The notes: a model not told the origin generated them from the letters alone. A stretch of DNA of 63,901 nt, filler included, from Reclinomonas americana ATCC 50394 (GCA_048213135.1; 9 parts of 9 records of this genome joined end to end with filler, not necessarily neighbours in it); one strand, 5' to 3'. Shown: positions 1,981-56,000, numbered from the whole stretch's first letter. Program-made: numbers and translations.

Positions 1981-4900
1981 ATGCGCCGTGGTTACCTGCT
2001 GCTCGCCGCTGTGCTTGTGGTGCTCTGCTCCAGTGCGCTGGTGGCGCATGCGTTCCTGCACTCGCACCATGGAGTGCAGTGGCAAGAGTCGACTGACCTT
2101 CCCACTTGGGTCGACCAGAAGCTGTTGCGTAAACACGCACACGCACACCGCGCACGCACGTATAAAGAGAGACCGCCATGCACATTCGCACTGATGCAAT
2201 GCACGCGTGTGAGAGAGAGAGAGTGTGTGATGAACTGATGCAGCACATCGGAGCATTTTGCTGCTCACACACGCACATGCGCATCAGCTCTTCTTCTCCA
2301 ATCTGCCATTGTGTGCATTGACTTTGTGATTGACTGCGGGGGGTCATTGCACATTTTTTCCACAGTGATCATTTCAATCCGTCCGACACGCGAACTTTCA
2401 AGCAGCGGTGAGCGTTGCTCTCTGCCTCTGCCTGCTTCTCTCCTCCACATTCTCATGTTCTCCGCAGCTACTGGGTCGATTCGTCGCACTGGGGTGGCAA
2501 GACTTCGCCTGGTGCGCTGAGAGAAGAGCTCAGTGTGTCGTCCATTCCTGACCTTTGTGTGTGCAGTGTTCATGTACATTTGCGGGGAGGGCGAGGTTCG
2601 TGCGACGTTTGCTTTCCACTGCGTGTGTGTGTTGGTGTCACTGACTGTCATGCATGTTGCAGTGCGGTGGCATTCCCAGCGGATACCTGGTCGACATGGC
2701 CATTGAGTTCCGAGGTCTGTGCAGTTGCATGTTTCGCTCAAAGTGGTACATTCCCTCATGTTCTCCATCGTTTCTGTGCAGGCTTGATCGTGGTGCTGGA
2801 GGTGAGCTGCCGTCTGCTGTTGGTGTGAAGGGATATGTGCCTCACGTTCGTCTTTTGCCCCTCGCCACAGCACCGCTACTACGGCGCGGTAAGTCGTGTG
2901 CATGCTTGCGCTCTCAGACTGTTTGTTCTCATCACCCACGTGTGCACACATAGAGCATGCCTTTCACGGACCTCCGCACCGAGAACCTCGCCTGGCTGAA
3001 CAGCAAGCAGGCGCTGTACGACCTGGCCTACTTCCACCTGTTCATCACCAACGCCATGTCGGTGGACCCGTCGGCTAAGGTGCGCTTTTTCAAACTCTGC
3101 ACGCACTCTTGCTCGCACATGTCGCTGACCATTTACACCCCTCCCCGCCTTGCAGTGGGTGTCTGTGGGCGGTGCGTCCTCCATCGGAATTCGATATTAA
3201 TTTGTGCTTCTCCTCGCATCTCACCTCGCTTTTGCAGGCTCGTACCCCGGTGCCTTGTCCGCGTGGTTCCGGTGTGTACGACCCTTGAGTACCTGTGTTG
3301 CATGCCGTATTCCTCACACACTCGCGCAGCCTCAAGTTCCCGCACCTCGTGGCGGCCAGCTGGAGCTCGTCGGGCGTCGTCAACGCCGTTCTCGATTTCA
3401 CCGATTTTGATCGCCAGATTTCCACGTCGGCCGGTGTCGGTTCGCCTTCTCCCACGCATCCCCTCTCTTGCGAGGTGTTGCGCGACTCACATCGTTCCTC
3501 GTCATCGCAGAGTGCGCCGCCGCCCTGCGCAACGCCACTGCCTCCATTGAGCAGCTGCTGGCGTCGCCGAGCACCAATGCCTCGACCAAGCAACTGTTTG
3601 GTGCCGACCCGACCGATTTCGCCGACGACGGAGGTGGGGCAGATATTTGTGTTGCATGTGATCACATGAAGAGCGAAAGCATCTCATTAATGGTGATCGC
3701 GCAGACTTTTACTACCTGCTGGCCGATTCTGGCGCTCTGGCGTTCCAGTACGGTGCGCGTGTCCACGATGACCCTGCTTGTGTGCACCTCCTGAACTCAC
3801 CGCTCGTGTCAATTGTGCAGGCTACCCCGATGCAGTGGTGCGAAAACAGGCTGCTCTGCGTCTATGTGTATCTCTCTCTCCTCTGTGTATCTGATTCGCT
3901 GCCTCGCATCACAGTGCAAGCCGATGGTGCAAGCTGCGCGCTCTGGTGGCGATCTGGTGCAGGCTTTCGCGACCTACACCAAGTCCTTCTTCTTGCCCAC
4001 GTTCTGCGCCGGCGTCGGTGCTCGTTCGTACAGGTGCGACGCCACCTTCGGTGAGCTTCTACTGATTTATCGTATTGATATCACTGTCTTTTCTTCGCCC
4101 GCATAGCACTCCGCTCCAGGCTACCATTGCCACGACCCCTGCTCGCAATGGTGCGTCTCTTTTCTCCATCTTTTTCACAGTTTCTTGCTTGACTCACATT
4201 TCGTGTGCCTCGCGACAGAGCGTCAGTGGTGGTGGCAGACGGTCAGTACGTTTGCTCGTGGTGAATTAGGAGTGTTTCTAACTTTATGTGCTCGTCTCTT
4301 GTCCTGAATCCAGTGCGCCGAGTTGGCTTACGTTGCGTGGTGGTGACGATTTTGTTGTGGCGGTGACGTTGGTTGTTTCTCACACTCCCTTCACCAATAG
4401 TGGCAGAATGCTCCCGCCACCAACTCGATCCGCTCGAAGGTTTGTGTGCCATTCATGTTCTACGTTTCTCATTTGCTGATCTTTGTCTCACGGTCGATTA
4501 CTCTTGCAGTACCTGGTTTGTTAATTCGTCTTGCTTGCTTCAAGCCACGCCACACTCACTCATTTACCTCTCGTCGTCTGCCTCGCGAAGAACATGGATT
4601 ACCACCACCGGTGAGTGCCGTTGTTTCCAGAGCAGAGGAGAATAGAGGGGAAGACATGGCTGTGCTGTTGCCTCATTCGCTGCTCACTTTTTCTTCCTCG
4701 TGTCTTTGTAGCCACTGCAAGGCTGTGTTTGGCGTTGCGTCCGCATGAACTCGCTTTCGCCTCCTCGACCATGCATCTCACCAAATCTTCTTTGCAGACC
4801 GACATCTGGCCGAACACCGTTGACACCAACAACTACTACGGTGCCACGAACGTGCAGCAGACCAACATCTTCTTTGCGAACGCCAGCCAGGACCCGTGGC

Positions 4901-5212
4901 AGTGGGCCAGTGTGCGCAGCACTCTGTCGCCCACCGAGCCGGCAGTCATCACCACGGTACGATGCTTTCCTCTCACCATGATAGACATCTCGTGCTGACC
5001 TTTTTTTTTCGCATGCACAGTGCTACAACTGCGGGTTGCGTTGCACAGGCGAACTGCATTTTCTTTCCACCGCCGTTTCTCATGCTCCCTTGTTTTTCCA
5101 CAGTCACTGCTCGGACCTGCGCGGCTGCCCCGGCGGTTGCACGGACCCGAACGCTCTGCTCAACACGCGCACGCAGATCCACAACTTCCTCTCGCGCGTT
5201 TTCAACTCGTAG
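1981..5212 (+). CDS. Serine carboxypeptidase, peptidase family S28 (PRCP/TSSP-like), secreted, many introns
   Basis: Signal peptide. Spliced motifs DQKLDHF...FKQRYW, LEHRYYG, QALYDLAYF, GGSYPGALSAWFRLKFPHL (catalytic Ser), QDPW and GHCSDL. Stop TAG at 5210-5212. Confidence 0.93.
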
Positions 5213-5602: not shown

Positions 5603-5637
<35 letters not shown>

Positions 5638-7421
5638 CGCTCATGCTCTCTCTCACTGTGCGTGTGTGCTCAGTGCCTGTGGCGGAGCGATTCATGGCCA
5701 TGCAGCAGAACGAGAGAACAGTCATTGTGGGCACATTGTACAAGGACATGCCACTCAAGCCAAACATTCTCGAGGAGATCGCCACCAACGTGCGCTCACC
5801 GTCTGTCTCTTCTCTCTGTGGCAATGAGAGACTCAGTAGCTGTGTGCGCGCAACTGCAGAAACCCATTGCTCCGGTGCAGCGGTTGGCCAAGTACACCAG
5901 CGAGAAGGATGTGGTCATCATTGAGGATGAAAGCGGGCGATTGACACTGGCGGGTGATGCGATTGAACCGGGCTTGTTGTGCACTGGTACGCGGAGTAGG
6001 AGCATGTCCATCTCTCTCCCTGTTGGATTCGTGACTGTGGCGTTGTGAGCAGGCACTGTCGGGGCGTTCCTCGGTGTGGAGGACAGCGTAGGCGAGTTCA
6101 CCGTGGAGGATTTCATGTTTGTGGGCTTGGCGCCGCAGCCGCGTGTGGGTGCGTGCTGCTTCTCAAGAAAACAGCGTTTGTCATGTTGCTAAGCTGTTGC
6201 CGCAGAGTTGCCTCGCGTTCCCACATTTGTGGCCTTGATGTGTGGACTCGGAATCGGCAGCAAGAGCGGCCAGGACCCGTTGCCGCTGCAGCTGGCCACT
6301 GATTTTCTGTCGGGCGCTCTCGGCTCTGACGAGGTACTGTGGCTGACGAGTTCGTTGATGTACTTGTTTGAGGCAGCGCCGCTAACCTGTGATGTGTGTG
6401 CGCACCAGGATCACGAGCTGCAGTCGCGCATCGTCCGCGTGGTGGTGTGTGGCGACACGGTCTCACCGCCCGAAAAGTCGGCATCGGGCCACGATCTGCG
6501 ACAGGTTGCGCGCGTGTGTGTGTGTGTGAAAAGTAATGGAGGGAAGAGGAGCTCACACGGCACGCGTGAATGCGTTCACAGCCCGGCGGTCAGCGTGCGC
6601 AAGCCGAAGTGGCTGCGCCGATGCGCGAGGCCGATGTGCTGTTCACCCAGTTGGCGGCCACAGTTCCGCTGGACATTATGTTTCGTTGGCAATAATAATG
6701 GTGGTGATGTGGTGAAGCTCATCGCGTGATCCACCGCAGGCCGGGCCCGGATGACCCCTCCAACTTTGCCGTTCCACAACAGTCGGTGCATCCGTGCCTG
6801 TTGCCGTGCACCTCACGCTTGTCGTCGGCCCAGCTGGTGCCGAACCCCTACGAGTTTGAGCTGGACGGCGTGCGGTGTGTTTGCGTTGTACACCCCACCT
6901 GTGCACCGTTGCACTCACACGCTCTTGCGCACCACAGCATGCTGGGTGCCTCGGGGCAGACGATTGACGACATTTTGAAGTTTGTCGACACCACCGACGC
7001 CCTGCAGGTGATGGAGTGGACGCTGATGTGGTCGCACATAGCACCGACGGCCCCCGACACGCTCGGTGAGCCTGCGCTCCGTCTCCGCACGCCATTTTTT
7101 CGTCTTCCTCACTAGGAGATCAGGTTCCTATCCGTTCGTCGTCGAGGATCCCTTTGTCTTGGAGCAATGCCCGCATGTGTACTTTATCGGCAACCAATCA
7201 GAATTCGAGTCCCGCACGGTTGTGGGTGCGTTGGCCGCCGAAGTCGCCCTGTCGCCGCAGTTGTCTCTTACCGCTCCATTGCAGGTCCCGACGGCCAACG
7301 ATGCCTGCTCATTCGCGTGCCGCGCTTCACACTGACTCACCAGATAGTACTGGTGGACCTGTCCACAATGACCTGCTCCCCCGTCAACTTTGGCTCCTCA
7401 CTGGCCATGGCCGTCGAGTGA
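5338..7421 (+). CDS. POLD2: DNA polymerase delta small (B) subunit
   Basis: Short first exon MEVDQP, then QYSHMYFCRL, IVGTLYKDMPLKPNILEE, IEDESGRL, MPGPDDPSNFAVPQQSVHPCLLP, HIAPTAPDTLG, DPFVLEQCPHVYFIGNQ. Confidence 0.95.
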
Positions 7422-7503: not shown

Positions 7504-9258
7504 ATGGCACACTCAGGTCTCTCCGAGTTCTACCTTCAGGTGGTGGACAGCGTGAAAAAGCGTGTGGCGCAAGAGATGGGCGCCGAGACAGACTGGAACC
7601 TCAGTGCCGACCTGCTGGATCGCATCGCAGTGGTGAATGGAGTGACAAGACAAGCACACATGCACACGCACATAGAGAGAGAAGCAGAGGAGTGTGTGTG
7701 CATTCACTCATACATATCTCACACATACAGTCATGGGTTCGCAAATTGATGGAGCGTCGCTGCGTGCATGCCAACGAGGCCATTCGACACTACCCGCAAC
7801 TTGCAGCAGTTGCGCTCACACACCTCCTCCTCATTGCCTCCTCATTGCCTCCTCTGTCTCACTCACTGTTCGTCTTGCGCAGCCGGCCTTTGCTCCTCCA
7901 CCGCCTCCTCCGCCTCCTCCTCCTCCTCCACCTCCACCTCCTCCATTCTCTGCCCTGGGTGGAGGCAGTGGCGGCCCTCTGCAACCTCCGCCCACTCCAC
8001 TGCTCGGCAACATGCCAGGCTCGTTCAGCACCGGACTGGTGAGAGAGAGATTCTCTCTGTGGGTCACTTGTCTCGCGCTCACTGACTGTCTTTTGCAGTT
8101 CGCGCCCACACCCTTTGCCAGCACACCCGGTGCTCCTGTGTCGTCGTTTGCCGACATTCCATCACTGGGCGGTGCTGGTGGCGCAGGCGGGAGCTTCCTA
8201 TCTGCACTGGGACTTCCCATGGCCGGATCGATGCCCATGGCCCCGCCAGCGCCTGCACCGGGACTGCCTCCGCCACCGCCGCCTCCGTCACTATCGGCGT
8301 CGTCACTGGGCCACCCGCCGTCGTTCTTGCCGGAGAGCTCGTCGGCCGCGTTTGATCCGTATCGCATGGCGGTGGCGAGTCGTGGCGATCAGCAAGGCGG
8401 CGGTGCGGGTGGTGGACGAGTGCGCACGCCTGTGGCATCTGGCGATGTCGTGCGCAATCACCCGTATGGTGGCGGCACGCTGTTGCCGCCGCCGTCGTTG
8501 ACGCCCAGTGCCATGTCGCCTGCACCGGTGCGTGTGTGTGTGCGTCTATCTCTCGCTCTTTTTGTTCCTGCCTCACTGCGCCACAGTTGCCGTTCTCCTT
8601 TGCAAACCTCGGCATGCCGTCGGTGTCTCACCTGGTTGGCATGCCGCCACCCATGTCGGCGCCGTCGCTGCCACTGCCGCCACCGCCACCTCCGCCTCCA
8701 CCGCGCGCGCCTGGCCAGTTTGACGGGCAAGACGATGACATCCTCAACGCGATGATGGCCGAGGCCGAGGATGACGACGATGACGACGGTGGTGGCCGAA
8801 AAGGTTCGTGTGCGAGGGGAAAGAAGATCCCCTCTGTCAAATTTAATGCTCAACTTGTGCACAGGCAAGGACGATGACGACGATGATGATGACGACGACG
8901 ATGACGATGACGACGACGAGGACGGTGGCAGCTCCAGCAAGCCCAAGGGACGTCCATCGACGGCCGCCGCCCCCGCCTTTGGTGGCGACGAGCTCAACTC
9001 CGAAGACGACCTCGACGACGACGACGACGTGATCCAGAAGGACGTGGAGACCGACAATCTCATTCTGTGCCAGTTTGAAAAGGTACGCGACACAGAAGCA
9101 GGCGTCAACGTCGTGATGTTTTACGTTTTTCGTGTTTTGTGGTGTGGCAGAAACACAAAAACAAGGACCGCTGGAAGTTCCATTTGCGCAACGGGCTCAT
9201 GCATGTCGCCGGCAAGGAGTACTACTTCAAGACCGCGCTTTGCGAGTTGAAGTTCTAA
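7504..9258 (+). CDS. GTF2A1: Transcription initiation factor IIA large (alpha/beta) subunit
   Basis: N-terminal FYLQVVDSVKKRV...W.RKL, Pro-rich and acidic linker, C-terminal DELNSEDD...DNLILCQFEK...RWKFHLRNGLMHVAGKEYYFKTALCELKF*. Confidence 0.9.
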
Positions 9259-9388: not shown

Positions 9389-12300
9389 ATGAGTCTCTTC
9401 AAGAAGATCTTTGGAGGCAAGAAGAAGGAGGAGCCCGCAGGCTACACTCCGCCTCTGCCTGGTGGAGGTGCCTCTGGTGGTTCTGCTGGTGCTGCATCAG
9501 CTGCAGACGAAGGGCCAACGTATGATCACGCAAAGGCGCTGGCTGCCATCAAGGCCAGAGGCGGCATGTCGGGCGCCTACTCACAGGTCTGCTCACACAC
9601 TCAGTCACACAAAGAGAGAGAGTGTGTTGTTGCTTAATCATCTGCCCTTCTGCTTGTGTGCTTCTCAGGACGGTGACGAGTTGGGCGACGAAGGGTATGA
9701 CACTCCTCTCACACACACTCACGCACTCTCTCCTTCTGTGCTCTTTCTTTGTGTGTATCGTTGACTGCTTCTCTCTATGTGCGTGTGTGTGCGCGTTGTG
9801 TGATCATTTTTTGACTGCGATTTTGCTTTTTTAAGAATGGTGCCACTTCCGATGCATGCGACGCGATCTCTGTTGAGCGAGCCGGAACCCGATTGGCGTT
9901 GCGTCTCTCACTCTCACTTGCACACACTCACACTCATGTGCTCACTCTCACTGTCATCAGAATCGATGAACGCGGCTGGTGGCAAGAAGCGTTTCGTCTC
10001 CTCTCTCACTCGCACCCGATCAATCGTGTTTCTCCGCACCCTCGCTAACTCTTATGTTGTGCAGCCAAGAAAGGCAAACGCGTGGGCAAGAAGAAACGCA
10101 CTGGTGGTGGTGGCGGTGGCGAGGATCTGTCGTTTGCGGGCATGGAGACTGCGGGGAATGGAGGCGATTTGTCGTTTGAGGGCATGGAGATGTCGATGGG
10201 TGGTGATGCGGCGCCACCGCCGCCGCAGCAGCAGCCGCCGAGCAGCAATGGAGCGATGTATAGTGGCAGTCGTGTGCCGCTGTCGTTCATGGGTGCGGCG
10301 TCGCCGGAGCCGACGACGGGTGATACGACGTCGGGTCTGGAGTTCCTTGCCGAGTTGCGCATGGGCGGTGGTGCGCCGTCGGCCGAGGGACACACTCATC
10401 ACAATGGTCATCATCACCACCACCACGATCACGATGACGGTGATGATGATGATGATGACGACGATGACGACGACGATGATGATGACGATGATGACGATGA
10501 TGATGATGGTCACCGTCACCACCGGAACCACCACGGTCACCACCACGATCAGCACAAGCATCAGCAGCAGTCCGATCGTCGCCACCAGCAGCCGGATGCC
10601 ACCAGTCCAAGTTGTGTGTAATGCCTCCTCTCATCCACTCGCGTGTGTTGCGCCGCCACTCACACCGCCTTCCTGCAGCCGAGTCGGGTTTCTCGTTCAT
10701 CACCGGGTCGTCTTCGGCATCCGCGCCATCACCGCCCCCACCTCAAGTGTCCTCCACTGGAAAGACCAAGAGCAAGGGCAAGGTGACGCGCAAACCGCGC
10801 CGCCGCCACGAGGATTCCGAGGACGATGACCACTCGGACAGCGGAGGCGACGACAGGCCGCCACCTCGCGCACCGTCTCCGCCACCGCCACCGCCGCCTC
10901 CGCAACCGGCGGCTGCGACCAAGCCGAAGAAGCCGAAGAAGAGAGTCACCGCCACCACTGGTGAATCCGACTCGCCTCGTTCGAGTGCCTCGTCCACGGC
11001 GACCAGCACTGCCGTCACGGCCAGCTCTCCGACGTTTACCAGTGAGTTGCTGCCGCCGTCGCCGTCGGTCGCACCCAGCTCGAAGGACAAGGACAAATTT
11101 GACGTGCGCGCCGAGTACGAAAAGGTGCGTGCGGAGAGAGGAAGAGGGAGAAAGAGATACTGATCGGGAGCTGACATGCGTTGTTTTCTTTGACGCAGGT
11201 GGCTGCACAGTTCGAAGCCTCGTTGAAACAGGTGCACGACCGCCGACGGACACTGCGTGCCTCGTTCCGCGATCTGTTCCTGTTGAAGCGGGAGACCATG
11301 GGCGAAGTGACACGACTGTCGGCGAGCGAGGAGCAGATGGAGCGCGAGCAGCAGCAGGCGGCCGACGAGGACAACTTTGAGCGTGCGGAGACCCTCACAT
11401 CGCAGCTGGAGATGGTGCGCTCGCAGGCCGAGGCCACGCACAAGACGCTGGCCAACATCGAGGTGCAAATGCGCGAGGCACAAAATCAGATTCAAAAGTA
11501 CCCGCGCGCCGAGATCGAGGCCCGCAGCGAGTACATGCGCCAACTGGGCGCTCTGCGAGATCGGGCGGAAGACTGGCTGGCGCAACACGAGACGCACGTG
11601 GATGAGAACGATCAGAAGGAGGTCGAAAGGTGCGTCGGCTTGTGGTGCGGAACACGATGCATTCCGTGATCACTGAAATCGTCCGTGCAGGTTCAACGAG
11701 GCACTGGACGAGATTGAGCGTGAGCTGCGTCATGTGGCGTTGGATGAGGAGACGTGTGAAACGAAGCGGAGGCGTGTGGAGGAGCAGATTCACAGCAACA
11801 CACACTCGCTGCGCGAGCAGCAGTCGCTGTTGATCGACGACATTATGCAAATCGACGCCGAGATTGAAGAGCTGGAGCGCCGCCTCGCCGAGGCTCGCAG
11901 GAGACGTGACGAGAAGATGTTTCGTGCTGTGTTCGCATTTTGCTGTCTGTCGTCTATGCGTCGTACTCATGCGATGTAACAAAACAAAACTGCAGGGCAC
12001 AGAAGGCGGAGCTCGACTCGACGATTCAAAAGGCCAGTGCCAAGTTCAAGGGCGATCTGGAAAAGGCACTCGCACAACTCGCGAAGCTGGGCGACAAGCG
12101 CAGCTCGATCGAAGCACGCAAGTCGGGAGTGATGACCAAGTTGCGATGTTTCCTTGTTGTTGTTGTTGCACGACGTATTGACTGTGTGGTCACTCAGACG
12201 CACGGCTGTGGAGGAGCGCATGGCTCTGGCGCGGCAGAACGAGGCCGCACAGCGCACGGCTCTGGAATCGCTCTCCGAGCAGATTCAACAGAACGCGGCA

Positions 12301-14668: not shown

Positions 14669-17600
14669 ATGGATGAGGAGGCGGTAGTGAGTAGTGAATT
14701 CGACAGTGGGATTGACGCGCTGACGAGTGCGTTTGCGAGTGAGGCGGAGAGATTAGTCGAGTCGTTTCGACAAGAGGCAGCTGGTGCGTTGTTTCGTGTC
14801 ACTCTCTGTGTCACGCACACACACGTGCGCACGCTGACTGTGTTGGCACGCGGTACAGTGCGACAAGCCAATGTGCGGAAGCAGCGCGAAATGGCGCAGC
14901 AGCAGCTGAAATCTCAAAAAGCGCGACTTCGCTCACTGGAGGAGGAGATTGCTCAGTTGCGCGAGTGTTTTTCCGCTCACGCTTGCACGTCCTCTTACAG
15001 CAGTGCGCAGAGTGAACGAGGAAGCAAAGCAGTATCAGCTGCGCGCGAGGGATCGTCGTGACAAGGCGCTCAAGTTTCGCGATTCGTGCATGGTGCTCGT
15101 CAAGGAGCTCGGGATGGAGGAGCCGGAGATTTGCGCGTCGGAGCTGTTGGTGGAGGAGTGGGGCGAGAATCCGTTTGCGATGCGCGTCGTGGCGGCGCCA
15201 GTGTCGCAGTTGATGGGCTCGCCGAGTGGGTTGGACGGCGAGGTGGCTTCACCGCCGCCGCCACCACCACCAGCTGTTGCGTTGCGTGAGTCGACACCGC
15301 CTGCCGACTCGCCGCCACGCGATTCCACGCCTGCACAGCAAGATGACACCGCGATGACACCGTTGCGAGGCTTTTCCGTGCTTCTGCTTCCATCTTGCAC
15401 GCGCTGACAACTCCAACACCACAGGAGTTCGTTGACTCCCACTGGTACAACACCGTTGCAGCGTCGCGCTTCACGTGCGCGGGAGACAAGCGCGTTGCGT
15501 CACAAACTTGTGCTTCCGGTGCCTTGTGCGCGCGGCTCACTACGTCTGGCTGCAGGGAATTGTCGAGTCCACCAGCAGATGTGGAAATGACAGCCATGCG
15601 CGACGGGTCACAGCCGTTGCGTTTTTTGTTGCCCTTTTTCCATCCGCCTGCGCCTCGCACTCACTCGTGTGGATCAGTGACGTTCTGTTGCCGCTGACGC
15701 CGTCGCCACAGCTGCTGCCGCAACCCATCAGGAGGAAACCAGCCACGCCATCTGCTGCGATCCAGGAACACCGTTCGTCGACCTCGTCACCCGCGCCTCC
15801 ACCGGCGCCGACCTCACGACACACCCCGTGTCCTCCGTCCCCGTCGCCACCATCGCCGCCACCACCAGCACCCTCCGCTCGTCAGTCGTCGACGACTCCC
15901 CCACCACAGGTGCCGTCGTCTCTGCCGCCGGCCCGCGCTCGCCCCATAGCCACCGTGGCGGCCGACGAACAACGCAACACATCGCCGACACCGCCAAAAG
16001 CTGTGGAGCCAGAGCCCGTTGTCAAGGTGGATAACGTACGCCGCCGCGCGCTCATTCGCAAAACCTCGGTTGCCACGGGCAGTCCGCCTACGGTTCGCTG
16101 CCTTGTGCCGTGCCTCGTTTTTTTGTTTTGCGCAGCGCTTTGCACTGACCTTGCGTGGTGTCGCAGATCAATTCCTCCCAAAGCAAAATGGATGCATTTC
16201 TGCGACGACCTGCCGTCAAGAAGGAGTCTGCTGCCGCTGCTGTGGATCAACCTTCCAGCGTGCGCCAGCTGTACAGTCGCAACAAGACATCGTCGCCGTC
16301 GTTGAGCGAGGCAGCGTCGACGGCGAATCTCGTGCCAAGTTCCCGTCTCTACCCGGGGTTGTTGCACGAGCGGGACATGGAGGTCGATGAGGCAGCAGCC
16401 GAGGCAGAAGCAGCAGCAGCAGCAGCAGCCGAGGTCCATGATCAGTCAGTGGTCTCGTCTGGTGAGAGTGCCGGTGGCCGACAGAGACTTGTGGTGGAGT
16501 CCATGTTGCGTGTAACCGCACTGTACTATTCATGGTTCTATGTGAATGTGGCTGACTTGCCACGTGACAGTCGGGATCCACATCATGCCCCGCTCACTTG
16601 TGACGAAGTGGAGCAGTTCCAGCCCTCGGAGCAGCTCTTCCCCAGCCGTGCCTCGGCATTCGTGCCTCCCGCACGTCAGCCGCTCCGGTCACCAGAAAAG
16701 GCCACGACCACCACAACGACCACCACCACCGTTACCGCTGCCGTCGCCGCCGCCAGTGCCGAGACCGCCTCCTCCCCCGATGCGCCTGCTGTCGATGAGT
16801 ATTCGGCGGTGCGTGCGCTGCGACCGCGGAGGGCACAGCCGCCGACTTCGTTGCCTGAGTTCGGGACCGATGTGAGACCACTGGAGCCGGTGAACCCTGC
16901 AGTGCTCCGCCAATTGGCGACGCGGAATACTCCTCCCGACTTTCGTGACGCCGACGACGATGAGGCGTACAACTTGGAGCCGTCCTACGTTGGTCATGTC
17001 ACCCTGCCCTCGACACTCGGCACCCTCGACGAAGCCATGCTGCTGGTGGAATTCGAGACGGGCACACCACCGCCACCGGACACGGCATCAGACTCTGGCG
17101 AGACGAAGAAGACGGCGGTGAGCCGGAAACGACCTCGCGAGTCACAAAAAAAGGCATCGTCAACCACCGGCACCGGCAGCAGGTCACGCAAGAAAGGACG
17201 CTCACGGGTCGACGAAGACGCTGCTGATGTCGACGATGTGGATATGGAGGATCATCGGCAGCGGAAACGTCGCCGCACCGAGGCCAGCGATGAACAACGG
17301 TCGAGATTATCGAGTCGGTGTGTGTGTTGACGCGATACACGCTGGGCCTTTTTTCGCTGGTAGTGACTCTCTTTTTTCGCGCAGGCGCACCGCACCACCT
17401 GCAACTTCGGCGGCTGCCGATATTCCGCTGGCACAGCCGTCGGTTCCGCTCGACATTGGCGAGGACGACGACGGTCTGTTTGAGGAGCCGGACGACGAGG
17501 AGCTCTATCACGATCCGGTCACCGACGAAACGAGTTGCGTGCGCGTGTGTCGGCACCCACTCCTCGGCTTGCGTGCCAAAGGGTTGCTTTGTGTGTTCCT

Positions 17601-18188: not shown

Positions 18189-24480
<6,292 letters not shown>

Positions 24481-24580: not shown

Positions 24581-26326
24581 GTAGGTGTTGGGTGACGGCT
24601 CGTGTAGCTCAAGCAGCACTCCGCTGGCGTACGGCGGCACTTGGTCGTTGGGGCACACTTGCAGGGCGCCGCAAATCGGCAGCACCGTCGTGTCGCTATG
24701 CGTGGGATGTACACAGGGTGAGACATTGGTGCGAGAGGGGCCGATAAGGGAAATGCAGACAACTCACTGGGCCGGATCTGGTGACGCATTACAAAATTCA
24801 GACTCACAAACGAGATACATGAAGCACTGGCGAAGAACGAGGTACGCAACAGACGTGCATCCGGTACGTGTCTTTGGTCGGATTCTGTGGCACGCAGAGT
24901 GAGGACAGCAATATGAGACCCTGTGCACCAAGGAGCAATCGACTCACCGACACGTAAGTCTGTATGATGGACTGCACTTCGGAGAACCAGTTCGAGCAGA
25001 GGCTGCGTGCATTCACCGTCAGCTGCGAGTCAAAGAAAGGCGTCAAGCACACCACTCTCACACGCAACATGGGCAACACATTGGCATTGGTGTACTCTTG
25101 GCCAATCTGCAATGCGTGGTGAGTGGTGATTGGCACGAAACAATAGTCTGCTGATCAACGCACCACCCACTGCGACAACTGGAGAAAGTCGGCCGCATCG
25201 GTGCCACTGAGCGAGGACGGGAGCGGATACTTGTGCGCCATGGCTGTCCATATCACGTCGTAGGCGTTGTACATGTTCTGGGTGGGTGGAGGAGAGAGTG
25301 TAAGTGAGAGAAGAAGGGGTAAATGGAGAGGGTGAGTGACGCGTACAATGCTCGTGTTGTCATCGTGTGGCAAGGTAACGGCAGTGCCGAGAACGTTGCT
25401 GATGCGCTCCAACAGAGCAGCGTTCGACTCGGCCGTCTGCTTCCACATCGGCGTCTCGTACAGGTGGTCACGTCGAATGGCGGAGACCTGCATCACTCTC
25501 CAATCAGCTCTTGCGCTCCCTCACGATCGCTCTTTCCTCAGCACTTGCCTCACCTGCGATGAACATATGTCGTACGGGCGCAACAATGCCTCGTCAGCCA
25601 CCGCCACGGTCTTGAGCGGCACCGGCTGGAAGCGGCTCGGAAGCGACTCCATCATGTCGACCTCGTTCAGAGGACCAGTGCCTGCGCCTTTCTTTCACAA
25701 CAAGGACAGCCTGCGCCCCCTCATCGCATGCACTCACCCAACGGGAACAGGCCGTACATCACACTCTCACCCGACATGAGGCACCGGTCCACGGCCGAGG
25801 CACGGACCTTGACTTGCGTGTAGGTGTACGATGGATTCAAAAGCGCTGAAATGCATGTGATATCATCAGCCACACGAACGTCTCTCTCTGTTCTCGCAAG
25901 TGGCCACACACACACCCGTCTGGTTGACGTACTGCGCGTTGAGATTGCGCCCCAGAGTGTATGTTTGATACATACCCTGCGAACGAGCAGTGAGAGACGA
26001 GCCGCAAGAGCAAGAGGCATGATGATATCACGCAGACCTTGCCCGTGAGCTGACCGAGTCCCAGTGGCCATTGCTGCACATTGCAAGGAAACACACATGA
26101 GCGCGCACTGAGCGAGAGAGTGAGAGAAAGACGAGCAGAACACACACACACGCACATTGAGGTCATTGAAGGTCTTTGGGAAGGTGACGAGTGGACCGCG
26201 ATCGCCGTGACGATGCACAAGAATCACTTTCCGCAGTGTTGTATCACCGGCACCGACAGCACTGCTGTTGCTCACACAAGCGACAAGCAGCAGCACCGCA
26301 AGGCACACAAGAAGCCACTGTCGCAT
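24581..26326 (-). CDS. Histidine acid phosphatase (branch 2), secreted/lysosomal; 3' end in gap
   Basis: Signal peptide, HRHGDRGP, WPLGLGQLTGKG, RASAVDRCLMS, spliced YPAHDTT and PPYASGVLLELH. Confidence 0.92.
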
Positions 26327-41820: not shown

Positions 41821-42446
41821 ATGTTTCACAACCCCGGTAACAGCGATCGCAAGTTGCTGGAGGAGATCGATGCGGGGCGCATGACAGAGCGCAACCTGGA
41901 TGTGCGTCTTACACGTGTGTGTGTGTGTCGCGTGCGCTGATCTCATCGTTGGCGCAGGACCTCCTCGCGCTGCGTTCGCGGTACACGCTGGGTGGTGCGG
42001 TCTCGTGGTGAGAGATGTGTGCGTGTGTGTCGGTGTTCACTCTGTGCGTGTGCGTGCAGGCATGGGCGGCGCAGTGGTCGGTGCGACTGGGAGCTACTTT
42101 GCGATGCGATTCATTCGTTTCGTATCTCTCTTCTCTCTCTGTGTGTTCGTCTCTCTTGACACAGCTCACACGTATGGGGCGATCGCACAGCCGCACTGTC
42201 TCAGATGACGGAGCGACGAGTGCCGATCGTGCTCGGTTCGTGGATTGTGGCGATCGCGAGGGGCGACTTGTCTTGTCTCTGACACGCAGTGTGTGTACTC
42301 GCGCAGCGTCGACCGTGGCCACAGCGTTCTTGTCGTCGTACATTGCCGGTCGCATTCACTCGTCGGGCGTGCGGGCGGCGAAGCAGCGGGAACAGGAGGA
42401 ACTGCGGCTGGCTCGGTTGTTGGCCGAGACAGCAGAGGAGAAGTGA
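41821..42446 (+). CDS. Small two-TM protein, paralogue A
   Basis: Spliced: MFHNPGNSDRK...LRSRYTLGGMGGAVVGATGSYFAMRFIPALSQMTERRVPIVLASTVATAFLSSYIAGRIHSSGVRAAK...EEK*. Confidence 0.75.
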
Positions 42447-42596: not shown

Positions 42597-43223
42597 ATGT
42601 CGAGCGACTTCCCCGACGTAAGTTCATCGCCCTTTGTGCCACAGCCGCAAACGCCCGCGGCACACGAGGCAGCGCAGCGAGATGTGGAGGTTCGTGATAT
42701 TGTACGCTGTCTTACACTCGGCCGCCGACACTCACTTTGTACTTTGTCTCCAGCACATTCGCACTCTCCGTCCGCAATACATGGCCAGTGGTGTGTGTAT
42801 GTCTCTCTCACTGACCTCCACTGTCAACCCGGGCTCACTGCTGTGCAGGGTTAACTGGTGCGGTTGCCGGTGGAGCCACCAGCTACGCACTCTTGCGCTT
42901 TGTTCGTTGCGTCCAGTATTCCTCTCGCTCTGCTCCGCTTCTCTCTTCACTCTCCGACGCACCACCACTGCAGCACGTTTCTCGCGGCTGGCCGACCGTC
43001 GCGTTCCAATTGTCATTGGTAAGCTGTCTCGGAGATTCTCTCGTCATCGCGCGCCCTTCTGCTCACATGATGCCGCCTGCAAGGATCGTCGGTGGTGGGC
43101 GCGCTCGTCACCTCCTACATCGCCGGACGCATGTACACCACGGCCTTGCGGGATGCGAAGCTGCGCCTGCAGGAGTACGACAGTCGACTCCGCACCAGTG
43201 GCAGCACATCGATGCCGCACTGA
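42597..43223 (+). CDS. Small two-TM protein, paralogue B
   Basis: Spliced: MSSDFPD...LRPQYMASGLTGAVAGGATSYALLRFVPRFSRLADRRVPIVIGSSVVGALVTSYIAGRMYTTALRDAK...MPH*. Same intron positions as paralogue A. Confidence 0.75.
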
Positions 43224-43419
43224 CATGCACCGAACAATCGTCTTCGCCTTTGTACATATTGTTTAATATTGCGATTAAAAGAGAGGCAGCACTGTCAACA
43301 AGCGTCACTCCTTGTTCCTCCTCCCACCGCCCCAGCCGCAGCAGCAGCGGTCTCGGAAAAAAGAGAGAAAAGTTGTCGCGACAAGAATCGCAGCGCCGTG
43401 TCTCTGCGCGGATCACCGA

Positions 43420-46528: not shown

Positions 46529-47907
46529 ATGGCAGCTGCATCAGTGGGCGAGGGAGAGAAGAGTGCATCGCGTGAGCAAGTGGAGCTCATTGCAGCTGCG
46601 GATGAGTTCTTTCGCGTGTCAACACCTCCACGTTGCACAGACGAGGTCTGTGCGTGCGAGTGTGCAACAGCAGCGCGCTTGTCTCCTTCACTGATGTGCG
46701 CTCTCTCTTGCTGCATCAGCTGCGGCAGGAGGTGGAGGCCTTTTGCAGCATGCACGCTGCGAGTGGTCGCCGACTGGTGTGTGTGACCAGTGGAGGCACC
46801 ACTGTGCCTCTGGAGCGCAACACTGTGCGCTTTATCAGCAACTTCTCGTCGGGAACACGAGGCGCGGCCTCAGTAGAGTTAAGACAGAGACACGCACACA
46901 CACAAAGATAGACTTTTGTGCTCATTGATTGATATCTTTGTTGATTAGGTACTTTATCCGAGCTGGATATGCTGTGGTGTTCCTCAATCGACGCTTCTCG
47001 ATCCAGCCCTATAACAGGCACATTCTCGAGGCGAAAACGAACGTATTAGACTTGGTGCGAGTCGACGAAAGCGGGCGCATCGTTGGTGCGTGAGGGAGAC
47101 ATTGTTGGCGAGGCCAGGTGACAAACAGTACCGACTGGTGTGTATTGCAGTGACGGAGGAGACGCAGCATACGCAGTTCCCGCGAGTGGTGGCCGAGTAC
47201 CACGAGGCCATGTCGCAGAAACTGCTGCTGCGTGTGCCGTTTGAGACGGTATTTGAGTACTTGTTCTTCCTGCGCGTGGTTTGTGAGGCGTTTGCGCCGC
47301 ACGGTCGCTCGACAATGGTGTACTTGGCGGCGGCTGTCTCCGACTTTTATGTTCCCGAGGCGGCCATGGTATGCGCACGTGTGCCTCTGTCGTAGTTGCG
47401 TTCGTGCCCTCATGTGCGGCGCGCAGCCCGAGCACAAGATCCAGTCGTCGGCGGGACCGCCACCGATTGCGTTGCAGGAGGTGCCGAAGATGCTGCAGAT
47501 GATTCGCTTTCGCTGGGCGCCCGAGGCCTATGTTGTGTCCTTCAAGGTGAGGTTCATCGAAGAGGGGAAAGGAGGAGACGACGGCCTCACTCATTCGCGC
47601 CGCAGTTGGAGACCGACATTTCGTTGCTGGAGAAGAAGTCGCGCGACGCCATTGCACGGTACGACGTGAATAGCGTGGTGGCCAACATGCTGCAGAGCTA
47701 CAAGGAGTGGGTGGTGGTGTATCGCGCCGACGGCGGCGAATCACGATTGTCGCGAGTAGATGGCGAGGAGCTGGAAAAGGTGCCTGCACAGCCGGCTCGT
47801 GCGCGAAAGTTGCCAACTCACGTGCATGTGTTTTTTTCCCGCAGCCCCTGGTGCACACGCTCGTGCAGTTCCACGACGACTGGCTCCTCACTGGCGAGAC
47901 GACGTAG
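46529..47907 (+). CDS. PPCS: Phosphopantothenate-cysteine ligase
   Basis: [68 protein letters not shown]. Confidence 0.95.
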
Positions 47908-47976
47908 CGGCCGGCACGACAGACGAAAACCAACAAAAACAATAAAATGCAGATTTTGGGTTCATTCGTCCATTCG

Positions 47977-49652: not shown

Positions 49653-51994
49653 ATGTTGGGGGGCGCCAGTGGTCACTCCACTAGCGGTCTTCCCGCCGGT
49701 TTCTACCGCACAACTGTCGAGTATCGTGTGCGCATTACGCGCGTGCGACAGCAGATTGTGCGATCAGGTGAGTGAGAGTGAGAAAAAGTTGACTGCACTC
49801 TCTCTCTGTCTCTCTGTCTCTCTGTCTCTCACGCGCATTTGTGCGTAGACTGGGTGCTTCCCGAGCGCTACGAGCTCACCTCTGTGCTGGGCTCGGGCGC
49901 ATTTGGTGTTGTTGTGTTGCGTTGTTTTCGTCACACAGTGTCTCTCTTTGTCTCTCTGTGTGTGTGACTCTTTGTGTGTCGCAGTGCGGCGCTTGATAAG
50001 GAGAGTGGGCGACAGGTGGCTGTCAAACGCGTGGAGAATGCCTTTCGCTCGGCCGCAGAAGCCAAGCGGTTTGCCTTTGTCACTCTCACAGTCAACCCCC
50101 CCACTCATCCCTCTCTAACATCTGACTGACACACGCAGCTTGTTGCGCGAGTTGAAGATCTTGCGACACATGCATCATGATAACGTGCGTCGCCTTCTCG
50201 TTGTATATCGACAAGGTCGACATTGAATTTCTTTTGCTTCGTGACAGATCATTCGACTGGTCGACATGGCAAAGCCGACTGCGTATGCCGATTTTCGGCA
50301 CTTGTACTTTGTGTTTGAGCGCTGCCATGTCGACTATTCCACGTTGCGACTCTCGTGTCCGTTGATATCGGCCGCTCTCGTCTCTCATGCGGCGATTGCA
50401 GGGTGCTCAAGTCGCCGGTTCCCATTACGGAGGATCAGCGACGGCGCTTCCTCTATGAGATGTTCAAGGCGCTCAAGTACATTCACTCGGCCAATGTGCT
50501 TCACCGTGACCTGAAGCCCGGTAATATTCTCACCACGGAGGAGGGCGCCATCAAGCTGTGCGATTTTGGGCTGGCGCGCTCCGTCAATCATCAGGGCGAG
50601 GATCGGTCGTCGCCCGAAATGACCCTCTATGTCGTTGCGTCCCTGTTGCCGCGGTGTCTGTGTCTCTGTGATGCTTACTCTCTAAGAAAATCCGAATCGT
50701 TAGGTGACACGGTGGTACCGTTGAGTATCTGCGTGCTTTGTCTCGTCTATGACCGTGTGCTCACCACAGGCTTCCTCGCACAGGCGCTCCGGAACTGCTG
50801 CTGTTCTTTTCGCGATACACCACAGCAAATATCCTTATCGTTATCGTTAAGCTTGCTGCTCTTCTTCTTCTTCTTTGTCTCCGTCCTTGACTCACAGCTC
50901 GGGCGTGTCGCACTCGACGTGTGGTCGGCTGGGTGTGTGAACTTCTTGTTTCTCCTTCACTCCACCTCCGCCCTTGCACTGAACAACTTTTTCCGTGCAG
51001 TTGCATCTTTGCCGAGACGTATTTGCGGTCGCCGCTCTTCCCGGGCTCCACTCGTTGCGTTTCTCCCCAGCGCCCACTTTGCCGCCTCCGCCGTCATTTG
51101 TCGCTCACTGGCGGAGTGCAGAGCTCAACCAAATCACCACGGTGTTCAACCTGATCGGGACACCGAGTCAGGAGGAGGTTGATGAGATTGGCTCGGCAGA
51201 GGTTACGTGCATGTGATTCGACTCGTGAGTCCGGCGCGGTCGTCCTCATCTCTCTCTTCGCACAGGCAAGACAGTGGCTGTCTACGCAACCGAGAAAAGC
51301 ACGGAGCTCATTTGCGGCCAAGTTCCCACAAGCGCCAGACGAAGGTACTTGCTTCATCATCGTCGCAGTCTCCTTTGTCTTCACGTGGTTCTCATCTCGT
51401 CCGCGGCAGCCATTGATCTGCTGGAGCGCATGCTGGTGTTCCACCCGTCGAATCGCATCTCGGTCGACGACGCTCTCGCGCACCCCTATTTTAGCTCGAT
51501 TCGTGATCCCGCGTCGGAGACCACGGCGCCCAGCACGCTCAACTTTGAGTTTGAGCAGCAGGACTTGACGCAGGAGACTGTCAGAGGTCCGTCTCTTTTT
51601 TTTGCCTGGCGATGTGTGTCTATTCCCCTCTCATCATGCCGCAGAACTAATCTGGCACGAGATCGCGTCGATGCATCCCGACCTCGTACCGCTCGGACCC
51701 ACACCACCGGAGGGTGCCGCCGCCACCGACGCTCCTCCCGAGGTGGAAGCCGCCGGTGGCTCCGGCTCCGCGCCACCAGAGTCGGACGCAGACACCGGAG
51801 CCACTGACGACGGCAGCTCCAGCGCAGCGGCCGACGGTGGCGGAAGCAGCAGCAGCGGCAGCTTCCTCAGCCCGATTTTGCCCACGCCTCCGCCTCCGCC
51901 CATGGCGACAGATGCGGGCTCGCCACCAGCGGACCCGCTGTCGCTTTCGTCGTCAGACTACGCAACACCACCGCCGCCTCCAACATCCGTGTGA
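49653..51994 (+). CDS. Mitogen-activated protein kinase (activation loop TLY)
   Basis: LGSGAFGVV, VAVKRV, RLLRELKILRH, HRDLKPGN, CDFGLARS, MTLYVVTRWYRAPE, AIDVWSAGC, DLLERMLVFHPSNRISVDDALAHPY. Confidence 0.94.
50829..50913 (+). other. U12-type (minor) AT-AC intron, 85 nt
   Basis: Donor ATATCCTT, branch TCCTTGAC at 50884-50891, ends AC. Removal restores the conserved kinase subdomain IX YTTA-I-DVWSAG. Confidence 0.95.
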
Positions 51995-53053: not shown

Positions 53054-56000
53054 ATGAGTCTTGATGCACGACTGCTGCGTCAACGCGAGGCACTGCTGCG
53101 CGCGGAACACAATCGCCCAGTTGCGTTTTTTTCTCTATCTCTCTGATGCAGTACAGCACACGCACGCACAGAGACACACAGACACGCACAAAGAGAGAGA
53201 CAAGGAGAGCACGCCACACATCCCACACACACACGTGCGCGACAACAACAACAACGTTGTGCGTTTGCGCGTCATGTCATGGCGCAACTCAACTCCTCAC
53301 GCTCACCAAACACACACTCATGCACGCACACAACAGGACATGCGTGCGGCCGACCGCGTGCAAGAGCGCGAAAACCGTCTGCGAGCAGCCGAGGAGAATG
53401 CACACGGGTACGCACACACAAACACACAAACACAAACACGTATTGGTTTCGGCCCTCACTTTGATGATGTATGCAGTGACTTTGCTGCTGCGGAGCGGTA
53501 TGCGGAGGAACAGGCGCGGGATCGTGGCAGCAATGGGTACTCGGTGCCGACACTGTCGGTGTTGAGTGTGGCGCGCACAGAGACTCCAGTCGATGCGAAT
53601 TTGTCGAGTGCTGAGCGCTCCGATGCCGACAGTCTCCTGCAGGTCCTCTATGCCTCTCCCTCTCTCTGCCTCTTACTCTATGCGTGTCTTGCTGACTGTG
53701 TGTGTGTCGCCCGCGGCTGCTGCTGCATCAGCGATTGTACTTTGGTGGTGGTGGTGGCGGAGGTGGAGCACCGGCGCAAAGCGTGCGTCATGAATCCTAT
53801 ACTGCACCGCCGCCACCGGCGATATCGACGGCGGCGGCGGCGGCAGTGGGCGCCTCGCGTTTCTCGGAACATTCGCCGTCTGGTGGGACGGAGACGTCGT
53901 CGGTCGGCGACTCCCCGTCGTATCTGATGCACACCGAGTCCGGTAAGCGTGCTGTTCATTGTCGTCGTCTTCTGCTGGTGTGATGGGTGCTGATTAGTGC
54001 GTGTAGTGGACCTGCACGATGATCCGTTCCTGCGTGAGTTGTCGCAGCAGCTGTCGCGCAACTCGGGCTCGCAGGCGCACCTGCATGCGCAGGCGTCGCC
54101 GCCGGTGCACCTGCAGCAGAAGCTGCCCGAGTCGCCGCTGGATATTGATGCCAATATGCAGCGCTACGGCCTTGCGCCGTCCACCGTTGCCGATGAGAGC
54201 TTTGATGTGAATGAGTATCTCTCGTTGCTGCGTCAGAACGAGAGCATGGTTGGTGGTGGCAGCAGCACTGGTGAGTCGCACGAGCACCTCCACGTAGCCC
54301 GCGCAGTCGCTGAAACCGCCTGAAATGCGCAGGATCGGCACCCTCCGCTCCCGCTGCTCCCGCCGCCTCCACGTGGCACAAGTCCGAATCTCTCGACGAC
54401 AGTGGTGTGTCTGCGTGTGTGTGCGTACAAAGGCAGGCAGGTCGTCGTCGTGCTCACACTCGCTGTGCGCGCCCGCAGGTGACGATGTGCGTGAGACGTT
54501 TGTGAAGCGCATCAATCGACTGGCAGAAGCCGAGGCGGCACTGAGTGCGTCGTTGGCGGCACATCCAGAGTACGAGCGCTCTGCCCTCGGTTCCGATCTG
54601 GTCGACACCTCTGGCGATATTTCGACCACCTACCAGGAGTTCTTGGTGCGTGCGAAGTGCCCGATTGCCTGTGCGTGCGCAAGCTCACGATTATGCGTGT
54701 GCACGTAGAGTCGCTTCCACTCCGACGGTCCCAGTGCTCCCCGCTCTCAGGCCAATCCAGATGAGATCCTGGCGGTGTGTTTTTTCACTACCACTGTGCA
54801 CGACTACCTGTCCTGCGTTTGTTTGGCTCATCTTTTCTTCCTTCTCTTTCTATTTTGCAGTCCATTCGCTCGCCGAGCAACCTGGAGGATTTGAGTGAGG
54901 ACCAACTGCGTGCCTACCTGCAAGAGGAGGAGAACGAGTGGCGTCGCTACGTCGGCACCATCACCAACAAGCAGTTCCATCAGCCGCGAGGTGTGTGTGT
55001 GTGTGTTTGTTCATACAATATAGTGCTGTTCGTGGGTTTCTCACAACGAAGCATGCAGCCTCTCCGCCCGAGAACCGCCGACTGTACGAGGAGTACTTGG
55101 ACTTCCGTTTTGGTCGCAACGAAAAGTCACCTCGTCGCATGGAGTCAGTGGAGCACCGTGATAGTTGCGAGGGCTGCTTGATGTCACGTCTTTTTCTTTT
55201 TAGTTTCTAACCCCGCGGCATGCAGTGTCGACCATGACACCCGATGAGCAGCGCGAGTACATGCGCACGCTGGCGATGCGTGAGGAGTGCGTGCGCAAGA
55301 AGCGCGTGAACAAGATGGTGAAGGACGCGGAGGAGCGCAAGCGCCACATTCTCAAGGACCGCCTGCGGAAACTGCAGGAGGAGAGCCAGGAGGCCGTCCG
55401 TCGCTCCCTTCGTGCCGCCGAGCGCAAGAAGCAGCAGCAGCAACAGCAGCAACAACAACATGCGCCAAAGCCAGTGGCACACCCGGCGCAGTCGCACGAA
55501 GTCGCACCCGGCGCTTACACTCCCGCAGGCCGGTCAGACTCCTCGTCGATTGCCGGCAGCGTCGGTAACGGCAGCCAGCCGACCGAGATGACAGCAGCGG
55601 CGCCGCCGTACTCTCGCGACGGGCCGATTGCACTCGAGGTTCGTTGTGTGCACTGACTAGTTGCACAGTGTTGCTGTGATGTGTCGCTAAAGTGGATGGT
55701 TGTGTGTTTCGCGCAGGACTACGAGGGTGGTGCGCACCTGCAACGGATACGTCAGCAGCGTGCGGCGGAGGCAGCGGGTGTGGTGGTGCGCCCTCGCGAA
55801 CCGGTAACGACCGATCGTGAGGTGTTGCAGAAGCAATCGGAGCAGGCGGCGCTCAAAAAGTTGCGCGAGTTGAAGCGCGACGAGCAGGACCGCCGTGAGA
55901 AGGAGGAGATGGAGAGACGCAAGGTCCAGGCCGAGAAGAATGCGGTTGGTGTCCACTGCGGTGCGCGTTCAGATGCGCGTCGACGGTCTCTGACAGTATT

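Follow-up and report, generated by a model that had tools for sequence, protein, structure and literature searches.

A putative one-base-shifted class of 5′ splice sites with an extra T after GT in contigs of Reclinomonas americana ATCC 50394

We analysed a stretch of 63,901 nt of DNA (hereafter the window) from Reclinomonas americana ATCC 50394 (GCA_048213135.1), which consists of nine contigs joined end to end, and found a class of 5′ splice sites in which the usual donor word carries one extra T after the GT, most often GTTGCGT in place of GTGCGT. Judged from the inferred junctions, these +T donors are a major donor mode in this genome, opening about one intron in five. We put at roughly 0.5 the probability that the introns concerned are GT-AG spliceosomal introns whose 5′ splice site is recognised one base off the usual register. 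The kind of register is already known from human, and what would be new here is its abundance as a major donor class. Throughout this work junctions were inferred from homology, reading frame and coding statistics, with DNA as the only data.

+T donors in homologue-guided and predicted introns

Junctions in two genes, encoding a MAP kinase and an ABCC transporter, were placed with a profile-to-genome spliced aligner that accepted only GT..AG introns at a flat penalty and was otherwise splice-neutral. The MAP kinase profile used 65 of the 120 matches listed, kept by a length of 340-480 aa, and the ABCC profile used 23 of 102 full-length matches after a redundancy filter. Six of the 12 introns in the MAP kinase gene had donors on the pattern GTT[AG][ACT]G (GTTGCGT, GTTGCGA, GTTGAGT or GTTACGT), as had five of the 27 in the ABCC gene (four GTTGCGT, one GTTGTGT). 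Of the 582 GT dinucleotides in the aligned spans 39 are donors, and all nine sense-strand GTT[AG][AC]GT words there are inferred donors; three further such words lie on the antisense strand. Forbidding the +T donor cost the alignment 5-18 bits at nine of the 11 sites and only 1.2-1.9 bits at the other two, 23684 and 19744. An alignment free of splice signals, in which any dinucleotide could end a gap, drifts by up to 5 nt and left 13 of its 37 gaps without a same-length GT-AG pair within 6 nt; the other 24 had such a pair no more than 6 nt away, where chance would give 4.5-4.6%. All of these 24 gaps are introns of the constrained alignment, and seven of them are +T introns.

The activation loop of the kinase is split twice (slashes mark the cuts): ...ATGACCCTCTATGTC/GTTGCGT...TTAG/GTGACACGGTGGTACC/GTTGAGT...ACAG/GCGCTCCGGAA, which reads M-T-L-Y-V/V-T-R-W-Y-(R)-A-P-E. 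The MAPK motif TLYV/VTRWY/RAPE is restored only through the donors at 50634 and 50720, and the 16-nt exon between them is flanked by two +T introns. Two micro-exons were seen on the plus strand, this one (50704-50719, VTRWY) and one of 18 nt in an S28 peptidase gene (4314-4331, CAELAY); both end at a +T donor, and both were skipped by the gene finder described below. As a foreign control, the same profile and aligner were applied to metagenome MAPK loci. Out of 79 fetched, the 42 with a length of 3300 nt or more were used, several of them near-duplicates, and the 37 shorter ones were left out; none of the 198 donors in these 42 loci was of the +T pattern GTT[AG][ACT]G. Metagenome stretches encoding MAPK numbered 516, with a best identity of 60%. 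A search with S28 exons gave seven matches, mostly fragments, which were too few, and the four S28 sites named by the first-pass annotation therefore have no homologue-guided alignment. The evidence for the four is the gene finder, which called three of them, together with a reading of the frame and of motifs typical of the family; in two exons the family was confirmed by Pfam.

The gene finder worked by dynamic programming and was run in two forms. In the donor-neutral form a donor was a bare GT, coding statistics were self-trained, and an acceptor was defined only by YAG with a branch-like motif; in the trained form the donor and acceptor models had been trained as well. Among the 250 introns of the neutral run GTTGCG was the top donor hexamer (20), above GTGCGT (14). 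In the trained run GTTGCGT led the donor 7-mers with 24 of 218, and GTGCGTG, the top ordinary 7-mer, stood at 13 of 218. The finder recovered the homology-guided introns exactly in 18 of 39 cases when neutral and in 27 of 39 when trained. It also fused genes, missed five of the 11 homology-supported +T donors, and took the wrong strand at 26.5-27.1 kb. There the plus strand of 26585-27123 encodes an NAD kinase and the finder put minus-strand exons at 26738-27098, so that some strand calls in the census are presumably wrong. In the homology set +T introns made up 28% (11 of 39); the trained run gave 18% (39 of 216) and the noisy neutral run 12% (29 of 248). This bracket of 12-28% derives from imperfect gene models, and it upholds the claim of the first-pass annotation that the class is a major mode. 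In all, 42 +T sites have at least two lines of evidence or homology support.

Each of the 17 donor words named in that annotation was found at its coordinates on the plus strand, and none was refuted as a donor. Fourteen were called as donors by one or more of three automatic models: ten in the neutral finder, 51202 added by the trained finder, and 19744, 50634 and 50720 added by the homologue alignment. The remaining three, 46878, 26827 and 4332, were not called by the models and fit by frame and homology.

Counts of the bare word are also uneven. GTTGCGT occurs 25 times on each strand, GTAGCGT 2 + 0, GTCGCGT 6 + 3 and GTGGCGT 12 + 12 times; its 50 occurrences compare with 30.1 expected from its own 6-mers, and the first base of NTTGCGT is G in 50 cases, A in 4, C in 10 and T in 8. 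With no gene model used, a CTSAY branch-like motif with a YAG ending 50-90 nt downstream (the 3′ module) accompanies 24 of the 50 GTTGCGT words, 1124 of 8350 GT dinucleotides (13%) and 34 of 135 GTGCGT words; for one-base variants the figure is 11-14% (GT[ACG]GCGT 4 of 35, [ACT]TTGCGT 3 of 22). Some GTTGCGT words that were scored as antisense or intergenic, such as those on the minus strand at 169, 731, 48115 and 49329, may be real donors.

Displacement of the donor motif by one base

Donor positions were counted over 134 introns of the neutral run, kept for a length of 45-150 nt and for CTSAY and YAG. Donors with T at +3 (n = 34) had G at +4 in 50%, C at +5 in 56%, G at +5 in 29%, G at +6 in 56% and T at +7 in 44%, whereas the others (n = 100) had G at +3 in 65%, C at +4 in 46%, G at +5 in 63%, G at +6 in 13% and T at +6 in 43%. 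About a third of the +3T donors are ordinary-register sites of the GTTCGT type. The trained run was sharper, with +6G in 60% of +3T donors and 8% of the others and +5G in 35% and 86%, respectively. Over the runs +4G ranged from 50 to 58%, +5C from 55 to 56% and +7T from 44 to 50% in +3T donors, and +3G from 65 to 67% and +6T from 43 to 59% in the others. It had been proposed in the first pass that the conserved G stands at +6 instead of +5; these counts agree (56% versus 13%) and add that the T moves from +6 to +7. The proposed test, a split of donors by the +3 base, was run on the inferred donors, and +6G was enriched in the +3T donors over non-donor GTT words (56% versus 23%, n = 1347 for the latter).

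The exon side is displaced as well. In the homology set only one of 11 +T donors has G at -1, whereas 15 of 19 ordinary donors with +5G and seven of the nine others have it (Fisher p = 3.8e-4, +T versus ordinary); the neutral run gave 2 of 26 versus 70 of 114 (p = 3.9e-7) and the trained run 3 of 36 versus 112 of 145. This loss of the -1G preference was not noticed before the present analysis and is new. When exon positions -3 to -1 of the +T donors were read as ordinary positions -4 to -2, this reading was favoured over the same register by 25.7 bits in the neutral run (26 donors) and by 57.7 bits in the trained run (36 +T donors). A bulge would let -1G persist, and its loss therefore favours a shifted register; the earlier wording, "shifted/bulged", had left the two open, and the shifted half gained from this result while the bulged half lost.

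Because of the shift and the loss of -1G, G/GTGCGT and /GTTGCGT can be regarded as one 7-mer, GKTGCGT, cut one base apart. The preferred donor motif would be the 7-mer G-K-T-G-C-G-T. With K = G its sole GT would lie at positions 2-3 and the cut after the first G, giving the ordinary G/GTGCGT with -1G; with K = T the sole GT would lie at positions 1-2 and the cut before the first G, giving /GTTGCGT without -1G. The 5′ end of U1 would pair with both forms at one and the same position. In +T donors, +1G of the intron would fill the slot of the exon's -1G, with +6G and +7U in the slots of +5G and +6U. The exact cut would be set afterwards, at the GU that the catalytic spliceosome (U6/U5/Prp8) happens to find. 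One lost pair demands a near-perfect remainder, which would explain why +T sites are nearly all GUUGCGU. The parts given here to U1 and U6, and the order of events, are what we infer; the sequence class, its abundance, the homology junctions and the one-base shift on both sides were established directly.

Similar registers have been described in human. According to Tan et al. (2016, PMC4856993), all validated non-canonical registers make up 1.5% of 201,541 human 5′ splice sites, and the shifted (+1) and bulge +2/+3 registers were established experimentally, the shifted one with a test oligonucleotide lacking -1G. Human shifted (+1) sites (Roca and Krainer 2009, as given in Tan et al. 2016, PMC4856993) have G/U at +6/+7, no G at -1 and the cut at GU, like the +T donors, and their +1G sits in the -1G slot, as would be the case here. 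In the +T donors +6G/+7T take the place of +5/+6, and -1 has no G preference, like the canonical -2. The human shifted sites are rare, whereas here 12-28% of inferred introns are concerned and GTTGCGT is the top donor 7-mer; the core is AAGU in the human shifted test site and GC here (GUUGCGU; human data from PMC4856993). Human bulge +2/+3 sites (Roca et al. 2012; Tan et al. 2016, PMC4856993) likewise have an extra U after GU and set +6G/+7U on C4/A3 of U1, but they keep canonical exon-side pairing, and the +T donors, which have the extra U, have lost the -1G preference. The likeness to rare mammalian non-canonical registers drawn in the first-pass annotation is supported. Among the papers listed on the shifted register we found no genome with shifted donors as a major class, and a literature search, with supplements and the founding register papers outside its scope, did not find GTTGCGT, GUUGCGU or GUUGCG as a splice motif.

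In other respects the +T introns resemble ordinary ones. Their median length is 65.5 nt (67 nt in ordinary introns), and CTSAY occurs in 23 of 36 (88 of 119 ordinary). Many genes contain them, and they were seen on either strand and in most of the contigs. Interior 8-mers shared per pair amount to 0.140 among +T introns, 0.196 among ordinary introns and 0.206 between the two classes (36 +T introns of at most 150 nt, 119 ordinary).

Three other origins were considered and put aside. A proliferating, introner-like intron family was rejected, since the +T introns have no common interior sequence. Sliding of an intron by one base through a G after the acceptor was also rejected, the first exon base being G in 2 of 26 +T and 30 of 114 ordinary cases. 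U12-type introns have an RTATCCTT-type donor and a matching extended branch motif; the donors here are GTTGCGT-like, and these introns match ordinary ones in length, in their branch-like motif and in the distance at which it lies.

Sites and their setting in the window

The sites are given below by donor word, with strand and intron end. "Both" stands for the neutral and trained finders, "aligned" for the homologue alignment with the cost of forbidding the donor in brackets, and "signal-free" for recovery in the alignment free of splice signals.

2124..2130, plus, intron to 2365: GTTGCGT, S28 peptidase; both; frame joins ...WVDQK-L-DHFNPSD
4332..4338, plus: GTTGCGT, S28 peptidase, after the 18-nt exon (CAELAY) read by eye; branch-like motif and YAG 50-90 nt downstream; missed by both
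4734..4740, plus, intron to 4797: GTTGCGT; both, 3′ module; next exon is Pfam Peptidase_S28
5035..5041, plus, intron to 5103: GTTGCGT; both, 3′ module
6505..6511, plus, intron to 6581: GTTGCGC (+T-like); both, 3′ module
6680..6686, plus, intron to 6739: GTTTCGT, DNA polymerase delta subunit 2; both; Pfam DNA_pol_E_B downstream
7809..7815, plus, intron to 7882: GTTGCGC (+T-like); both, 3′ module
9898..9904, plus, intron to 9960: GTTGCGT; both, 3′ module
9991..9997, plus, intron to 10064: GTTTCGT; both
12140..12146, plus, intron to 12197: GTTGCGA; both
15616..15622, plus, intron to 15677: GTTGCGT; trained finder, 3′ module
19218..19224, plus, intron to 19277: GTTGCGT, ABCC; aligned (13.2 bits), signal-free, both
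19744..19750, plus, intron to 19808: GTTGCGT, ABCC; aligned, weakly (1.9 bits); 3′ module
21334..21340, plus, intron to 21400: GTTGCGT, ABCC; aligned (14.4 bits), signal-free
21832..21838, plus, intron to 21905: GTTGTGT (+T-like), ABCC; aligned (8.0 bits), trained finder
23684..23690, plus, intron to 23744: GTTGCGT, ABCC; aligned (only 1.2 bits), both, 3′ module
24844..24850, minus, intron to 24778: GTTGCGT; both
26827..26832, plus, intron to 26882: GTTAAG, NAD kinase; frame joins ...LRLIC-K-WLHEHG...; downstream exon is NAD kinase
28940..28946, minus, intron to 28882: GTTGCGT; both, 3′ module
29222..29228, minus, intron to 29175: GTTGCGT; both, 3′ module
30290..30296, minus, intron to 30224: GTTGCGT; both
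30737..30743, minus, intron to 30685: GTTGCGT; both, 3′ module
34283..34289, minus, intron to 34230: GTTGCGT; both
34985..34991, minus, intron to 34924: GTTGCGT; both
39159..39165, minus, intron to 39108: GTTGAGT; both, 3′ module
42117..42123, plus, intron to 42190: GTTTCGT, first internal-repeat copy; both, 3′ module; junction RFI-P-ALS
42906..42912, plus, intron to 42973: GTTGCGT, second internal-repeat copy; both; junction RFV-P-RFS
46878..46883, plus, intron to 46948: GTTAAG, phosphopantothenate-cysteine ligase; Pfam DFP; missed by the gene finders
49916..49922, plus, intron to 49984: GTTGCGT, MAP kinase; aligned (11.0 bits), signal-free
50343..50349, plus, intron to 50401: GTTGCGA, MAP kinase; aligned (11.0 bits), signal-free, both
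50634..50640, plus, intron to 50703: GTTGCGT, MAP kinase, before the 16-nt exon; restores T-L-Y-V/V-T-R-W-Y; aligned (10.0 bits), signal-free
50720..50726, plus, intron to 50783: GTTGAGT, MAP kinase, after the 16-nt exon; W-Y-R-A-P-E with split Arg codon; aligned (18.3 bits), signal-free exact
51054..51060, plus, intron to 51121: GTTGCGT, MAP kinase; aligned (6.5 bits), signal-free exact
51202..51208, plus, intron to 51265: GTTACGT, MAP kinase; aligned (5.0 bits), trained finder, 3′ module
13033-13132, 18389-18488, 24481-24580, 33075-33174, 41433-41532, 52373-52472, 57109-57208, 60116-60215: the eight linkers between contigs, with a stop in all six frames

Protein structures in PDB bear on three of these junctions. 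At 46878, residue 79 of the upstream piece corresponds to residue 113 of 6ai8_A (yeast Cab2) and residue 2 of the downstream piece to residue 117; residues 114-116 are filled exactly by one residue and the split codon, so that the two pieces are exactly colinear with the chain. At 6680 the first residue of the downstream exon aligns at residue 303 of 3e0j_A (human POLD2), and the upstream side had no PDB match; at 26827 the upstream side had no significant match in the PDB search.

Two similar peptide units lie on the plus strand at 41885-42279 (...GATGSYFAMRFI-P-ALSQMTERRVPIVLG...) and 42815-43215 (...GGATSYALLRFV-P-RFSRLADRRVPIVIG...), and neither matched a Pfam family. Each has a +T intron at the same place and in the same phase, GTTTCGT in one and GTTGCGT in the other, so that the +T state was either kept through an internal duplication or gained on two occasions.

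The nine contigs measure 3-13 kb each, and the linkers consist of 44 N, TTAATTAATTAA and 44 N; since the window is made of separate contigs placed end to end, genes that adjoin across a linker need not adjoin in the genome. Its G+C content is 58%, and TG/CA-rich repeats are abundant. Genes are intron-dense. Their exons are very short, and their introns measure about 55-80 nt (about 57-81 nt from the 10th to the 90th percentile); the introns contain the CTSAY motif, its A lying about 17-20 nt from the 3′ end, and nearly always end in CAG. In protein searches the closest matches had 48-72% identity and were scattered over eukaryotes; no close relative of the window's proteins was found in any collection searched, and a 50-nt exon word had no exact match in two large contig collections (genomes and metagenomes). 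Two long frames are intron-free. One, of 612 codons on the plus strand (43279-45117), stands amid an otherwise intron-dense region, and a word-indexed search with the frame 43441-45117 found no homologue. The other, on the minus strand (57161-59131), consists of tandem repeats (...LGYPTSDE...), for which we presume the name LGFP, and fills its own 2.9-kb contig; it resembles a bacterial-type cell-wall repeat protein and could be contamination or a transferred gene.

Recognition of the +T donors

The standard U1 5′ end is ACUUACCUG, and the standard U6 box is ACAGAGA. To our knowledge, in the organisms studied so far the place where U1 binds and the cut almost always coincide, and the few human exceptions had to be proven singly. 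Several observations weigh against recognition of the +T donors one base off the usual register. With a human-type U1 end (AUACUUACCUG, printed in PMC4856993) the mean predicted duplex energy was -6.06 kcal/mol over 147 ordinary donors and -1.58 over 39 +T donors, whose best registers set +1G on C9 in 8 cases, on C8 in 5, on C4 in 14 and on U2 in 1, and left it unpaired in 11; taken alone, standard-U1 thermodynamics lends the shifted register no support. In addition, the +T class is much narrower than the ordinary class moved by one base, and a different recogniser could be at work. The two variable positions are occupied by GC in 20 of 32 +T and 29 of 114 ordinary donors of the neutral run (p = 2.1e-4), in 31 of 39 and 42 of 145 of the trained run, and in 8 of 11 and 5 of 19 of the homology set, comparisons in which the diversity of the ordinary class is inflated by false positives. 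The human optimum, AA, is absent among +T donors, and a standard U1 end would not be expected to select a stringent class that has GC in place of AA. Moreover, the match of the +T exon side to ordinary -2 is mainly a lack of G, the other frequencies being near background, and the junctions rest on homology for two genes and on a finder that matches 27 of 39 homology introns exactly. Finally, the organism's U1, U6 and U5 are not among the window's sequences: no Rfam family reached its gathering score there, hence no snRNA (small nuclear RNA), U1 and U6 included, and the 29 weak Rfam matches, with E up to 5, were all low-complexity and microRNA-like, none being an snRNA.

The weak pairing with human-type U1 and the restriction to GC at +4/+5 suggest that the idea of variant snRNAs, raised in the first pass, should be kept alive. 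The recogniser itself may be altered or dedicated, an explanation that we hold to be possible but doubtful. It could take the form of a single U1 with a changed 5′ end, for example with G at U1 nucleotide 5 pairing the favoured +4 C, which would keep the shifted register and make its pairing strong, or of a second U1 variant or a protein factor reading GUUGCGU directly, and +T donors would then have a recognition system of their own, parallel to the ordinary one and still part of the major spliceosome. Ordinary donors prefer C at +4 (45-46%), a base for which a standard U1 end has no partner. Of 16 hypothetical U1 ends with nucleotides 5-6 varied, G5-C6 gave the best mean energies, -9.20 for ordinary and -7.15 for +T donors; this end is predicted to set +1G on C9 in 25 of 39 +T sites. 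The 58% G+C composition could favour C at an unpaired position, however, and a single recogniser common to both classes would predict the shift on the exon side. There is no snRNA in the window to speak for a changed end; the U1 5′ end is, as far as we know, nearly invariant across eukaryotes, and we know of no changed U1 in GC-rich algae with +4 C. A comparable question was posed by Irimia and Roy (2008, PMC2483917) for Ostreococcus, whose introns outside chromosome 2 have atypical strong GTGCGTG donors and for which they suggested that changed snRNAs were worth exploring. The ordinary donors of our window have the same GTGCGTG core, and +4 C is unexplained by standard U1 in both organisms. 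Ostreococcus is intron-poor, and the passages of PMC2483917 consulted mention no one-base-shifted sister class, whereas the present genes are intron-dense and have one. That a major spliceosome here works with a retuned reader (U1 G5, perhaps C6), or with a second U1-like snRNA serving about a fifth of the introns, is a speculation that we think rather unlikely.

In a bulged register U1 would pair canonically with +1G and +2U, and one U, at +2 or +3, would be flipped out. The extra base is always a U beside +2U, as that register requires, and it has been validated experimentally in human, with 68 predicted and 54 curated sites (PMC4856993). Under such pairing, however, -1G faces C9 of U1 and should persist, and only 1 of 11, 2 of 26 and 3 of 36 +T donors have it; moreover, +1G falls on C8 in just 5 of 39 sites with human-type U1 and in 3 of 39 with the best hypothetical end, and we judge a bulge to be improbable. 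Less credible still is the view that there is no special register at all, the +T sites being degenerate +3T donors without +5G and GTTGCGT being common through an intron family, a repeat or base composition. Nine of the 39 homology-supported donors do fit neither the ordinary nor the +T pattern, and the abundance of TG/CA-rich repeats would also suit such a view. But +T introns share no more interior 8-mers than ordinary introns do and are spread over many genes, both strands and most contigs, the 3′ module accompanies GTTGCGT far more often than GT in general or its one-base variants, and the gain of +6G/+7T and the loss of -1G are position-specific.

These findings bear on gene annotation as well as on the mechanism of splicing. 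A gene finder whose training rests on GTNNGT logos will overlook +T donors or put them in the wrong place, and it will misplace the micro-exons that lie between them. If a second U1-like snRNA were truly present, there would be two parallel U1 systems inside the U2-type spliceosome; if instead the U1 5′ end had changed, the change would have made the one-base-shifted register a routine and strongly paired mode. Splicing specialists would find real interest in such a class. A genome with about a fifth of its introns cut one base off the motif would allow three questions to be studied in nature and on a large scale: how the cleavage site is fixed after U1 leaves, how much mismatch the hand-over from U1 to U6 tolerates, and whether the near-invariant 5′ end of U1 can drift.

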